The position numbers and the translations under genes were made by a program. The notes beneath the pieces are model-generated. The model had not been told where the DNA came from. It saw only the letters and a list, made by a program, of their open reading frames with translations, and made no database searches. A DNA stretch of 5,172 nt. Origin: a virus (taxonomy: Duplodnaviria; Heunggongvirae; Uroviricota; Caudoviricetes). The stretch is taken from IMG/VR virus record IMGVR_UViG_3300001919_000214; one strand, written 5' to 3'. Below are positions 1-4,251 of this stretch, one piece after another; position 1 is the first letter of the stretch, and every line of letters begins with the position of its first letter.

Positions 1-933
1 GAATCCTGCCGGGATCTGGCTGTAGTCCACGTTGTCGTAACTGGCTTTGAAGTACGGGTCTTCACGTTTTTCTGTGTGCGTGCTGACGGACGGCGATAAG
101 CGCAGGGAAAGCTCATCCCATTTTTCCCGCAACTTCGACGGGCTGAGCACGTTACGGCACCAGAACGGATCACGGCTGACGCGGCTGTACATCTCGCAGA
201 TTTGTTTGTGAGTACGACCATCCTGCACACACATCAGGCGAATTTCGTTTGCCCAGGCTGTCCAGTTCGGTTCTTTGGGACGAACCACCTTGCCGTCACA
301 TTCGGCGGCTTGCTCGTACAGGGCGATGATTTTTTTCCAGAGCCACTGTGCGCAGGTCAAATCATCCTGCGTTCCCCACTGGCGCTTTTTAGGGCTGAAT
401 ACAACCGCATCAGGATGGCGAGTTAAAAAATACTGTTCAGCCGTCTGCGTGTCCGGTTGCGAAGCGTCCGGACGAGAAGGTTTTTTATCTGACGGATCAT
501 GTTTTGATTTTACTGACGGATCCCCGCCAGATTCTGACGGGTGAAAACCCGCTTTTTTGCCAGATTTCGACGCATCAAATTTTGACGGGTCAGATTTTGA
601 TGCGTCAGATTTTGACGGGTCAGAATCTGACAGTTGAGAAAATGCCGCTGCCTGAAGCTTCGCAACGTTAAGCTGATAAACATTCGACGCATTGCGGTTA
701 CCCTGGCGACGCGCCTTACGCGTTAACCAGCCTTCTGCTTCCAGCCGTGCGATAGCCGTTCTGACGGTACTCATCCCCGCGCCAATCTGACGGGCAATGG
801 TTTCAATTGATGGCCAGCACACACCTTCGTCATTACTGAAATCAGCCAGGCGGGCCATAATTGCCACGCTGGATAATTTCATGCCTGACGCAGCGCAACC
901 ATCCCATACATAGCCGGTTAATTTAGTGCTCAT
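1..933 (-). CDS. Phage replication initiation protein, lambda O-like; 5' part of the gene (311 codons), the 3' end lies beyond the window start
   Basis: Minus-strand frame open from ATG at 933-931 to position 1, checked codon by codon at the start and through 541-633. SD-like TAGAGG lies 6 nt upstream of the ATG. N-terminus (MSTKLTGYVWDGCAASGMKLSSVAIMARLADFSNDEGVCWPSIETIARQIGAGMSTVRTAIARLEAEGWL) looks like a winged-HTH initiator domain, followed by a Ser/Asp/Lys/Pro-rich repeat linker (SDSDPSKSDASKSDPSKFDASKSGKK) and a distinct C-terminal domain. Not in the ORF track because there is no in-window stop. Confidence 0.75.
   Translation of the reverse strand, partial: MSTKLTGYVWDGCAASGMKLSSVAIMARLADFSNDEGVCWPSIETIARQIGAGMSTVRTAIARLEAEGWLTRKARRQGNRNASNVYQLNVAKLQAAAFSQLSDSDPSKSDASKSDPSKFDASKSGKKAGFHPSESGGDPSVKSKHDPSDKKPSRPDASQPDTQTAEQYFLTRHPDAVVFSPKKRQWGTQDDLTCAQWLWKKIIALYEQAAECDGKVVRPKEPNWTAWANEIRLMCVQDGRTHKQICEMYSRVSRDPFWCRNVLSPSKLREKWDELSLRLSPSVSTHTEKREDPYFKASYDNVDYSQIPAGF
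485..642. repeat. Iteron-like tandem repeat array (about 15-bp period, TGACGGGTCAGATTT-like units) inside the initiator gene; putative origin of replication
   Basis: Consecutive 15-bp units at 553-567, 568-582, 583-597, 598-612, 613-627 and 628-642, plus TGACGG motifs at 490-495, 514-519 and 535-540. The same repeats encode the pentapeptide linker of the initiator, as lambda ori does within O. Confidence 0.55.
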
Positions 934-942
934 GACCGACCT

Positions 943-1281
943 CTATTTCCCTGAATTTACGACGAAACTGTTCGAGCGGGCTGAAGCACTCATGCTCATA
1001 GCCTTCACGGAGGTAGATAACCCGTTGTGTTTCCGGCTCCCAACGAATGACTCTGACGGGCACTCCGTAGTGATCTTTGAACCAGCGGTTAACTTGTCGC
1101 AAAGGACTGTCTCCTTCTGCCGGTTGAAATCACCCACAGCCCACTCTGCAAAGCTGTGGGTTACAATTTCCCTGTCACCTGGTACATTCACTGCATAGCA
1201 ATACTCCACCTTCGCTTTTCCACCCGGTACAGGAAGTGCAATCAGTTGCGAACGACGGTAGTGTGTTGTTAAACTGTTCAT
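943..1281 (-). CDS. Hypothetical small protein (112 aa), third gene of the cro operon; possibly YmfM-like (e14 prophage) by position and length only
   Basis: ORF with ATG at 1281 overlapping the upstream stop as ATGA (1278-1281); GGAG lies 10 nt upstream. Stop at 943-945 sits 9 nt before the initiator ATG. No recognisable motif in the translation. Confidence 0.55.
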
Positions 1282-1940
1282 GCGTTAGTTTCTCCACAAC
1301 CAGAAGCAATCGACGCCACGACGCCCGGAGCTGCACACTCGCGGGCGTTACTCTTTTCCGGCGCACAAAAAACACGAAATAACAGTGTTAAATGCTCCTG
1401 CCACTTCGCCATTACCTGGTAGCTGTTCTCTTCGATTTGCTCACGCTCAGCTTGGTCAATAACTCCATCAGCAGTTGCCTTGCGTAAGTACTGAGAATGC
1501 TTGCCAATCCATTCTATTGACTCCATCAGCCGCTGATTAATGTCACCATTGTCAATGTCATCAATGACCACCAGCGGCACAAACACCCCATTACTACGAC
1601 GGGCTATTGCATCTGTTACATGCCTGGTACCACTGGCATCCTGTAAAACCATGGCCCACTCAAGTGGAAAAATTTGATCCCCACCGCTACGCAGTCTGTT
1701 ATGCAATTGATCTTTTGCTGGGGTGATATCATCAGATTTATACAAACCAAGAATTTCTGCTGCTTCCTCATAGCCATGAGGTAAATCAGCAATCGTTCTT
1801 CGTATTGCTGCCACCAGCCATGCTGGTTGTTTATCAACTTTCCATTCAGGTTCTTTACCCACGGTTAATTCCTCATTTCTGTGGTTACGTTTACGCAGCT
1901 GAACCGCTAACTTTTGAATAGCACTCAGGTAATCCATCAT
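1278..1940 (-). CDS. Hypothetical regulatory protein in the CII/YdaT/YmfL position downstream of cro (221 aa from ATG 1940)
   Basis: Long minus-strand ORF with stop at 1278-1280. Start is ambiguous: ATG at 1973 (83-bp overlap with cro), ATG-ATG at 1940/1937 (47-bp overlap, no SD), or GTG at 1862 with GAGGAA 8 nt upstream (194 aa, no overlap). Functional call rests on synteny alone. Confidence 0.55.
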
Positions 1941-2154
1941 TTGGATTGGGGTAAATATCAGGACGCAGTTCATGAGGGGTCACGGACCAGTTTCCCAACT
2001 CACAAAGTTGTAAAACCCGTTCTGACGGGACTTGATTGTTAATTACCCAATTAGCGACGGATTGAGTGGACTTAAAACCAAAGCGACGGGCTACTTCAGA
2101 TAAAGATTTTCCCGCAGCCTTTACTGCTTTCTCTGTGTAGTTTTGAGATGACAT
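1891..2154 (-). CDS. cro: Cro-like HTH regulator (YdaS/Cro family), 87 aa
   Basis: ATG at 2154 with AGGAG 6 nt upstream. Translation contains SLSEVARRFGFKSTQSVANWVINNQVPSERVLQLCELGNWSVTPHELRPDIYP, the pattern I associate with YdaS-type Cro proteins. Divergent from the CI-like gene. Confidence 0.8.
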   Translation of the reverse strand: MSSQNYTEKAVKAAGKSLSEVARRFGFKSTQSVANWVINNQVPSERVLQLCELGNWSVTPHELRPDIYPNPNDGLPECYSKVSGSAA

Positions 2155-2306
2155 ACCTTTCTCCTCTGAAATTCAGAGGGATGATGCTACTTAAAATAGC
2201 AANNNNNNNNNNNNNNNNNNNNNNNNNNNNNNNNNNNNNNNNNNNNNNNNTGCAACTACTTAAAATAGAAATGACTAGTGTATGTGATGTGAGTAATCTT
2301 CTACCT
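2155..2306. promoter_or_regulatory. Divergent cI/cro switch region with candidate operators; 48 nt masked by N
   Basis: 17-bp perfect palindrome CCTCTGAA-A-TTCAGAGG at 2163-2179, adjacent to the cro SD. 13-bp direct repeat CTACTTAAAATAG at 2187-2199 and 2256-2268 flanks the N-run. Promoter hexamers cannot be read because of masking. Confidence 0.5.
2203..2250. other. Run of 48 N (masked or unsequenced) in the cI/cro intergenic region
   Basis: Directly visible. Confidence 1.
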
Positions 2307-3011
2307 ATGGTAGAAGAACAGAAGTATCCAGATTTCGCCAAGAGACTAAACGAGCTAATGACAAACAAGGGAATTTCTGTCACCCAACTCAAAAGTCTTG
2401 TGGGCGTTACATATGAAATGGCGCGGCGATACACAATCGGCGCTGCGAAGCCTCGTGCCTCTGTCATGAATAAACTTGCATTGGCTCTGGGGGTATCAGC
2501 TTCATATTTAGAATATGGTGTTGGCGAGAGAGAAGGATGTAAGGAAATGGCAAGCATCCCCAATCCAACGAAACCCGATGTATACAGGATAGAAGTTTTG
2601 GATCTTAGCGTTAGCGCAGGACCTGGGACCTATATGCTTTCAGACTATGTTGATGTGCTCTACGCCATTGAGTTCACAACAGAACATGCCCGTTCTCTTT
2701 TCGGCAACCGTTCTCAGAATGATATTAAGGTTATGACTGTAAATGGCGATAGTATGTCCCCTACACTCGTTTCCGGAGACCGACTGTTTGTCGACATTTC
2801 TGTTCGTCACTTCCAGACTGATGGAGTTTACTCTTTCGTTTACGGTAAGACTTTTCATGTCAAACGTCTTCAAATGCAAGGTGACAAGCTAGCCGTTCTT
2901 TCGGATAACCCCGCCTATGAGAAATGGTACATCGATGAAAAATCGCAGGATCAGCTTTATGTAATGGGCAAGGCGTTGATTCACGAATCTATAAAATACA
3001 ACCGATTGTAA
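2307..3011 (+). CDS. cI: CI-type prophage repressor: N-terminal XRE-family HTH plus C-terminal LexA/S24 autopeptidase domain (234 aa)
   Basis: HTH region FAKRLNELMTNKGISVTQLKSLVGVTYEMARRY; probable Ala-Gly cleavage site in VSAGPG; catalytic Ser in GDSMSPTL and Lys in FHVKRLQ, arranged as in LexA, lambda CI and P22 C2. Stop TAA at 3009-3011. In-frame ATG at 2271 is an alternative start; neither has a strong SD. Confidence 0.9.
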   Translation: MVEEQKYPDFAKRLNELMTNKGISVTQLKSLVGVTYEMARRYTIGAAKPRASVMNKLALALGVSASYLEYGVGEREGCKEMASIPNPTKPDVYRIEVLDLSVSAGPGTYMLSDYVDVLYAIEFTTEHARSLFGNRSQNDIKVMTVNGDSMSPTLVSGDRLFVDISVRHFQTDGVYSFVYGKTFHVKRLQMQGDKLAVLSDNPAYEKWYIDEKSQDQLYVMGKALIHESIKYNRL

Positions 3012-3055: not shown

Positions 3056-3454
3056 ATGAAATCTGAACTATTTCATAGCGAAGCAAATTCAGAAATTATC
3101 ACTGCAGATGAGTTTATTGATTTCATAAACTCTTTCAAAAAGCCTTTAATTTGCCAAATTTGCGGAAATCAATCATGGAGTGTAGTCGGTACTCTAGAAC
3201 TTGAAGTTGAAGACAATCAGCCAAAACATCACGTAATNNNNNNNNNNNNNNNNNNNNNNNNNNNNNNNNNNNNNNNNNNNNNNNNNNNNNNNNNNNNNNN
3301 NNNNNNNNNNNNNNNNNNNNTAAATTATCCTGGTGGTATGCCGCTGTTTCGAATCACCTGTGATCACTGTGCACATGTACTTCTTTTTTCTTATAAAAAA
3401 GCTAGATCATTGATCCAAAAAAGAAAAAATGAAAAAGAAGAGGATGGGAAATGA
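3056..3454 (+). CDS. Hypothetical small protein with two CxxC pairs (zinc-ribbon-like), 132 aa if continuous across the N-run
   Basis: ATG at 3056 with AGGA 8 nt upstream. CQICGN before the gap and CDHCAH after it lie in the same frame, supporting one protein. Basic C-terminal tail. Continuity across the 83 masked bases cannot be verified. AT-rich. Confidence 0.5.
   Translation: MKSELFHSEANSEIITADEFIDFINSFKKPLICQICGNQSWSVVGTLELEVEDNQPKHHVXXXXXXXXXXXXXXXXXXXXXXXXXXXXXNYPGGMPLFRITCDHCAHVLLFSYKKARSLIQKRKNEKEEDGK
3238..3320. other. Run of 83 N inside the putative zinc-ribbon gene
   Basis: Directly visible. Confidence 1.
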
Positions 3455-4198: not shown

Positions 4199-4251
4199 NN
4201 NNNNNNNNNNNNNNNNNNNNNNNNNNNNNNNNNNNNNNNNNNNNNNNNNNN
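4199..4251. other. Run of 53 N in the intergenic region after the terminator
   Basis: Directly visible. Confidence 1.

Follow-up and report, generated by a model that had tools for sequence, protein, structure and literature searches.

A probable replication origin inside the initiator gene of SfIV/SfII/CPS-53-type lambdoid prophages

Introduction

In phage lambda, the replication origin is contained in the initiator gene O itself. Ori-lambda consists of tandem dyad-symmetric sites that occupy the centre of the initiator ORF and separate the parts coding for the N- and C-terminal domains, and these sites code for a repetitive linker that joins the DNA-binding domain to the C-terminal one. An A+T-rich region lies immediately promoter-distal to the sites, and within the early right operon the initiator gene comes after cro and cII. 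All these traits are shared by the locus described here. The 933W-type Stx phages carry a 6-iteron variant of ori-lambda. As for the units described below, the number of lambda-type iterons varies, with in-frame peptide insertions (PMC7466680).

In lambda, P22 and L, such intragenic repeats are considered to be the origins (PMC8022706; PMC7466680). For P22 (4 repeats of about 20 bp) and phage L (6 of 11 bp), the origin was inferred from imperfect repeats found centrally within the initiator gene (PMC8022706). The phi80 origin, in gene 15, is likewise intragenic, as here: the phi80 record annotates four gp15 sites at the corresponding position of this gene, which code for a repeated FPKTGKS-like linker. 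In theta plasmids and P1 oriR, repeated initiator sites also lie beside an A+T-rich region, as in the present case; the theta-plasmid iterons differ in being intergenic direct repeats of 17-22 bp, bound by Rep monomers, usually with DnaA boxes. Initiators with an HTH_36 domain have been described in a survey of Stx-phage replication modules, which does not mention repeats or origins (PMC8951638).

The DNA considered here (hereafter the window) is a stretch of 5,172 nucleotides from a virus of the Caudoviricetes (IMG/VR record IMGVR_UViG_3300001919_000214). On the basis of sequence comparison, positions 475-630 are probably, and with rather good confidence, the vegetative replication origin of a lambdoid prophage of the SfIV/SfII/CPS-53 type, located where its own initiator gene codes for the linker. 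A search of the literature yielded no paper describing or testing this origin, and a search for binding or origin activity in this initiator family yielded no experimental evidence.

Results

Gene neighbourhood

The left 3 kb of the window corresponds to the immunity and replication region of a lambdoid prophage. Its features are the following:

1-933, minus strand: replication initiator gene, with an HTH_36 N-terminal domain and a lambda-O-like C-terminal domain (translation, Pfam, PHROG)
1-441, minus strand: region coding for the C-terminal helical domain (blastp to lambda O and phi80 gp15, AlphaFold2)
643-933, minus strand: region coding for the N-terminal winged-helix domain, aa 1-97 (Pfam, AlphaFold2)
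943-1281, minus strand: ymfM/DUF4222 homolog (PHROG 1170), directly upstream of the initiator gene
1278-1973, minus strand: CII-like gene, ymfL homolog
1891-2154, minus strand: Cro/YdaS-like gene
about 2280-3011, plus strand: CI-type S24 repressor

On the minus strand the order of the genes is Cro/YdaS-like, CII-like, ymfM-like and initiator, i.e., the early right operon placement of lambda-type origins. The ymfM of e14 is the SOS-inducible FtsZ-ring inhibitor SfiC (bioRxiv 10.1101/2020.11.19.390815). Masked runs of N at 2203-2250, 3238-3320 and 4199-4251 hit the cro/cI intergenic region, the ORF 3056-3454 and the stretch before 4252, respectively. Because these runs interrupt the window, neither operators nor promoters can be read in the immunity region.

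Over positions 1-1300, the identity is 98-99% with the Shigella phages SfIV and SfII as well as with several temperate phages of E. coli. In the records of these phages the long ORF is labelled «replication protein», «DNA replication protein O» or «primosomal protein». The initiator gene itself has 98.9% DNA identity with orf41 of Shigella phage SfIV.

The initiator protein

The window contains 311 of the 313 codons of the initiator gene, its 3' end being beyond the window start. The protein matches PHROG 391 («replication initiation O-like») over its full length (E=1.6e-135) and Pfam HTH_36 at aa 23-70 (E=4e-11). The Phage_rep_O domain is absent from the Pfam result for the N-terminus, which gives HTH_36, GntR and other HTH families instead. 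Database names for this gene are only «helix-turn-helix domain-containing protein» or «GntR family regulator».

By blastp, aa 70-277 align with residues 78-270 of lambda O (30% identity, E=1.5e-25), and a match of similar strength is obtained with phi80 gp15 (E=2e-25), the C-terminal domains being 35% identical. Both alignments leave out the N-terminal helix-turn-helix part. Judged from these alignments, the C-terminal domain is homologous to those of lambda O and phi80 gp15. A more informative match was sought by PDB sequence search and Foldseek, and only generic MarR-like winged helices were obtained (E 3.6e-3 or worse).

An AlphaFold2 model was built with 36 homologs. It contains: (i) a confident winged helix at about aa 1-98 (helix-helix-helix-helix-strand-strand wing, pLDDT about 80-89); (ii) an unstructured segment at aa 102-165 (pLDDT <50), i.e., the segment coded by the cores and the A+T-rich repeats described below; (iii) a confident helical domain at aa 186-280 (pLDDT 85-92). 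The linker peptide at aa 102-165 is thus predicted by the model to be disordered, and the N-terminal winged helix is the presumed reader of the iterons.

The repeat array and its register

Between the HTH_36 domain and the C-terminal part, the minus strand reads ...SDSDPSKSDASKSDPSKFDASKSG... and codes for SDSD-PSKSD-ASKSD-PSKFD-ASKSG. The initial annotation of this DNA had claimed at least five consecutive 15-bp units in the initiator gene, coding for an SKSD-type pentapeptide linker between the winged HTH and the C-terminal domain. Both statements are confirmed, the former by Tandem Repeats Finder, a repeat search and shuffled sequences, the latter by translation and Pfam. Tandem Repeats Finder reports 561-624 at period 15 (4.3 copies, 81% matches) and also at period 30 (2.1 copies, 88% matches); five copies in register are given by the repeat search. 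The 10-mer TGAYGSRTCA, with at most one mismatch, has 14 matches vs. 2.1 expected, 12 of which are within 490-622, and 14 matches were reached in none of 200 shuffles.

The register first proposed for the 15-bp consensus was shifted: according to 293 units from relatives, the conserved register is not TGAYGSGTCAGATTT but an 11-mer core, TCARAWTCTGA on the coding strand (TCAGAWTYTGA on the plus strand), with a freely varying 4-nt spacer. A palindrome register TGAC-NN-GTCA was considered and rejected, the third base of the Asp codon and the third base of the next codon covarying weakly (134/73/21/19, odds ratio about 1.7). Because the pairing positions of TGAC-NN-GTCA carry little information, the conserved unit is the other palindrome, TCAGAWTCTGA. 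As for the further TGACGG motifs of the same annotation, they are indeed present (CTGACGG at 489, 513 and 534) and are of two kinds: the motif at 534 is part of a proximal core, those at 513 and 489 are part of two 24-bp GATC repeats.

The anatomy of the element is given below in plus strand coordinates, with the sequences read on the coding strand:

620-630: core 1, TCAGATTCTGA, a perfect palindrome
605-615: core 2, TCAAAATCTGA
590-600: core 3, TCAAAATCTGA
575-585: core 4, TCAAAATTTGA
560-570: core 5, TCGAAATCTGG, degenerate
538-559: 22-nt spacer from the array to the proximal core (plus strand reading: small hairpin and T6 run)
527-537: proximal core 6, TCAGAATCTGG, 15 nt before the first GATC
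499-522: first 24-bp A+T-rich repeat, GATCCGTCAGTAAAATCAAAACAT, starting with GATC at 519-522
475-498: second 24-bp A+T-rich repeat, GATCCGTCAGATAAAAAACCTTCT, with GATC at 495-498
465-474: perfect 10-bp palindrome CGTCCGGACG, adjoining the A+T-rich repeats

Cores 1 to 5 are near-palindromic, 11 bp long and occur once every 15 bp. The proximal core is the most conserved one, and most of the 85 relatives examined below match the strict core pattern at this place. It is uncertain whether the palindrome at 465-474 belongs to the origin; lambda too has a palindrome past its A+T-rich region.

No tandem repeat of the SfIV genome (39.8 kb) scores higher than the array, the initiator gene contains all five exact matches to the core, and no second array was found. 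The ORFs 504-671 (plus strand, 55 aa) and 510-692 (minus strand, 60 aa) result from reading the array in alternative frames (QNLTRQNL...) and are most likely artefacts of the repeats. A terminator-like hairpin antisense to the initiator gene is present at 538-551 on the plus strand, with a tail to 561 (CGGGTGAAAACCCG then CTTTTTTG); it may simply reflect the conserved sequence coding for KKxGF(H/D)P.

The window contains 8 copies of CTGACGG, all on the plus strand, vs. 0.4 expected. Five of them are outside the origin region (83-89, 761-767, 787-793, 1053-1059 and 2022-2028) and are distributed over three reading frames. A stretch of 565 bp in the SfIV genome contains 5 of its 6 copies of CCGTCAGA. 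The outside copies of CTGACGG and CCGTCAGA were considered as auxiliary sites and rejected. Relatives coding for identical amino acids at these places do not keep them, and for this reason the outside CTGACGG copies are not counted in the origin.

Conservation of the cores among relatives

Relatives were gathered by means of the N-terminal domain, from phage records (100% down to 31% identity) and from GTDB with one genome per species (80 loci, 61-100% identity, from genera including Citrobacter, Kosakonia, Enterobacter, Yersinia, Pantoea, Proteus, Providencia and Rahnella). The main comparison deals with 85 relatives from Enterobacterales species and phages.

All the relatives collected have a repetitive segment directly past the N-terminal domain. 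Among the 85, the number of strict pentapeptide units goes from 0 to 8, most often 3-5, and the overall layout is constant despite this variation. One E. coli strain is identical to the window except for exactly one additional 15-bp unit.

Codon usage in the units is very different from that in the rest of the same genes. The first Ser is coded by TCA in 269 of 293 cases (92%, vs. 17% elsewhere), Lys by AAA in 217 of 217 (vs. 62%) and the second Ser by TCT in 179 of 213 (84%, vs. 9%), while the codon of the variable residue almost never ends with T. Over TCAAAATCTGA the information content is high, while the 4-nt spacer of that unit carries little information; this contrast within one and the same unit excludes both hitch-hiking and recent duplication as explanations.

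The core DNA (YCA-RAW-TCT-GR) is kept even though the peptide varies (SKSD, SESE, PESG, PDSD or SDSE). Moreover, one copy of the core occurs out of frame in phiP27 (L004 1946-1970, TTCAGAATCTGG), at a start-to-start spacing of 32 nt, and in a Citrobacter prophage (L082, gene position 449, GTCAGAATCTGA), where in both cases it is read as (R/L)QNL. These two copies are a direct case of a DNA site retained across reading frames.

A comparable result is obtained for the 20-codon block that spans the GATC repeats and the proximal core. Where the amino acid is shared with the window, the codon identity is 86% in this block vs. 42% in the N-terminal domain, and it is higher in the block in 83 of 83 relatives. 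Since codons are almost fixed, peptides differ and one copy is out of frame, selection acts on the DNA and not on the peptide. As judged from these comparisons, the cores are maintained as DNA, independently of the encoded peptide.

The array always stays with this N-terminal domain, while the neighbouring genes on both sides are exchanged; even the C-terminal domain is replaced, by at least two other types among the relatives. The core is unchanged within the family of 61-100% identity, and covariation between N-terminal domain and core is therefore visible only against very distant relatives.

A+T-rich stretch and GATC

The two 24-bp repeats (475-522) are the most A+T-rich part of the initiator gene, since they hold its lowest-GC 40-nt window. 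The latter begins 6 nt past the first GATC and about 11 nt past the proximal core. The A+T enrichment is modest, with 30-33% GC over 40 nt vs. 20% in lambda. In 68 of the 85 relatives, the lowest-GC 40-nt window begins right past the last core. Lambda O was used as a positive control with the same script, and its GC minimum begins 3 nt past the annotated iteron 4.

The first GATC is kept in all 85 relatives and the second, at +24, in 75 of them. The stretch 475-522 is the presumed unwinding region. GATC-containing repeats in an unwinding region recall P1 oriR and the 13-mers of oriC. It must be added that a gene for a Dam-like N6-adenine methyltransferase is located downstream of the initiator gene, at 2.5 kb at most, in 36 of the 80 related loci (L012-L091); a link between these methylase genes and the GATC repeats is possible.

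Comparison with described origins

The lambda-like arrangement claimed in the initial annotation is supported in every part that can be computed, i.e., position, selection at the DNA level, A+T-rich stretch, homology of the C-terminal domain and repeats of distant relatives. The differences with lambda are also clear: (i) the N-terminal domain of lambda O is Phage_rep_O, not HTH_36; (ii) the 11-bp cores occur every 15 bp, vs. sites of 18-19 bp every 20-24 bp approximately in lambda; (iii) the site sequence is TCAGAWTCTGA vs. ATCCCTCAAAACGAGGGA; (iv) GATC is conserved in the A+T-rich part, whereas it is absent there in lambda O; (v) lambda has P beside the initiator gene, whereas SfIV and CPS-53 have no P-like gene at this place. 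The 15-bp spacing corresponds to about 1.4 helical turns, unlike the 20-24 bp of lambda and phi80.

In phi80 the N-terminal domain is of the lambda-O type, the sites (TTCCCGAAAACGGGAA) have a 21-bp spacing and a P-like gene (gene 14) follows, which distinguishes it from the present locus. Gene 18 of phage L has short 11-bp units, as here; the initiators and repeat sequences of P22 and L are unrelated to those of the window, and a gene for a DnaB-type helicase (gene 12) follows them. Theta-plasmid iteron origins are not of the same type: the cores are intragenic, palindromic, 11 bp long and spaced by 15 bp, and the window contains no DnaA box.

Min27, Stx2a_F403 and WGPS2 («Eru» non-lambdoid Stx modules) and mEp460 belong to the same HTH_36 N-domain family and have repeats directly past the N-terminal domain. 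The N-terminal domains of Min27 and mEp460 are 31-38% identical to that of the window, and repeats of the Min27/mEp460 type are different dyad-containing sequences at the same position (GGGGTGGGGCAGGAGCTGCCC; GTGCAGGAGWTKCAC). The repeats are different in each of Min27, mEp460, phi80 and lambda, and the site sequence thus differs with the type of N-terminal domain.

A gene for a P-type or DnaC-type loader was sought directly downstream of the initiator gene in SfIV and K-12 CPS-53, this position being outside the window, and was not found. The genes past the initiator are there a PerC-family regulator (yfdN), then a LexA-like repressor or a Dam-like methylase.

Two other kinds of records were examined and set aside. 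The O protein and origin of «P27» studied by Kozlowska et al. are not a direct test of the present origin, as this O is of the lambda type (two residues from lambda O) and is not the HTH_36 protein of the phiP27 record. The small circular «plasmid» records that contain the N-terminal domain give no indication of replicating autonomously: they are excised e14 and a 16-kb piece of prophage genes. The e14 circle (L092, 5600-6989) has only the first 78 residues of the N-terminal domain, fused to another ORF, and no cores. The pseudogene yfdO of K-12 CPS-53 (L097, MC4100, 1113-1820) has kept the cores, the A+T-rich repeats and the C-terminal domain and has lost most of the N-terminal domain. K-12 thus holds complementary remnants, CPS-53 yfdO and e14.

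Discussion

Alternative explanations

The cores may be considered as sites of the initiator that serve mainly for control, i.e., autorepression of the early right operon, titration or handcuffing, the start site being elsewhere. Control iteron arrays do exist in plasmids (P1 incA, RK2), and additional CCGTCAGA half-sites are found upstream (761, 787, 1053 and 2022 in the window). Yet these half-sites are not conserved in relatives, the SfIV genome has no second array, and the A+T minimum with GATC repeats, conserved directly past the array, is a hallmark of an unwinding region; a role in control without a role in initiation is unlikely. Conservation of DNA does not by itself name the reader of this DNA, and the signal could be meant for another protein or process (host factor, other phage regulator, recombination or packaging site) and be in the initiator gene by chance. 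Against this, the array always accompanies this N-terminal domain while neighbours and C-terminal domain are swapped, distant N-terminal domains have different repeats at the same place, and position and layout are those of the experimentally defined lambda and phi80 origins, so that such a coincidence is quite unlikely.

A constraint on the mRNA (translation-slowing hairpins, target of an antisense or regulatory RNA) would fit the single-stranded folding of the region, better than that of shuffled sequences (z=-4.4), and the antisense terminator-like hairpin at 538-551. Folding is, though, a trivial outcome of palindromic repeats, neither an Rfam match nor a promoter-like site was found, and the conserved GATC and A+T minimum indicate functions of duplex DNA; this explanation is very improbable. 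The least probable one is that of a mere low-complexity SKSDx linker generated by slippage during replication and without a role at the nucleic acid level. It agrees with the predicted disorder and the variable length of the peptide. It is strongly disfavoured by the near fixation of synonymous core positions across about 80 species while spacer positions of the same units vary, by the association of one core with different peptides, by the out-of-frame copies in phiP27 and L082, and by the codon identities (86% vs. 42%). A replication origin is the reading retained in what follows.

Proposed mechanism

At this origin, dimers of the N-terminal winged helix would bind the near-palindromic 11-bp cores, i.e., five at 15-bp spacing and the proximal one. 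The resulting nucleoprotein complex would destabilise the adjacent A+T-rich stretch with its two GATC-starting repeats, and the lambda-O-like C-terminal domain would then bring in the host helicase, directly or via a partner. Rightward early transcription, coming from the cro side, would pass through the origin. Binding by the initiator, unwinding and recruitment of the helicase are steps that we infer, and the helicase step is the weakest part of the model, since genes of the P or DnaC type are missing downstream in the closest complete relative.

As a tentative and rather doubtful extension, this origin may fire unlike that of lambda in three ways: (i) the lambda-O-like C-terminal domain may contact host DnaB/DnaC directly, without a helicase loader encoded by the phage; (ii) adenine methylation or SeqA may gate firing by means of the two GATC-starting repeats in the unwinding region; (iii) the initiator dimers may occupy sites packed at 15 bp, neighbours facing nearly opposite sides of the helix.

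Occurrence and significance

Positions 380-700 of the window are matched in 2059 of 5426 complete E. coli genomes, including the CPS-53 remnant yfdO of K-12. SfII and SfIV, two serotype-converting phages of Shigella, also have this replication module, as do prophages throughout Enterobacterales. An element of this kind belongs to textbook knowledge, its intragenic layout is common and ordinary, and the understanding of lambdoid replication is not changed by this result. The type of origin specificity, in turn, appears undescribed so far and yet very common.

What is obtained is a concrete candidate origin and an iteron consensus, TCAGAWTCTGA, followed by GATC-starting A+T-rich repeats. The annotation is thereby improved, since databases give this gene only generic helix-turn-helix or GntR names. 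The locus is also a clean example of dual coding: a tolerant protein linker accommodates a site that is maintained as DNA, even across reading frames.
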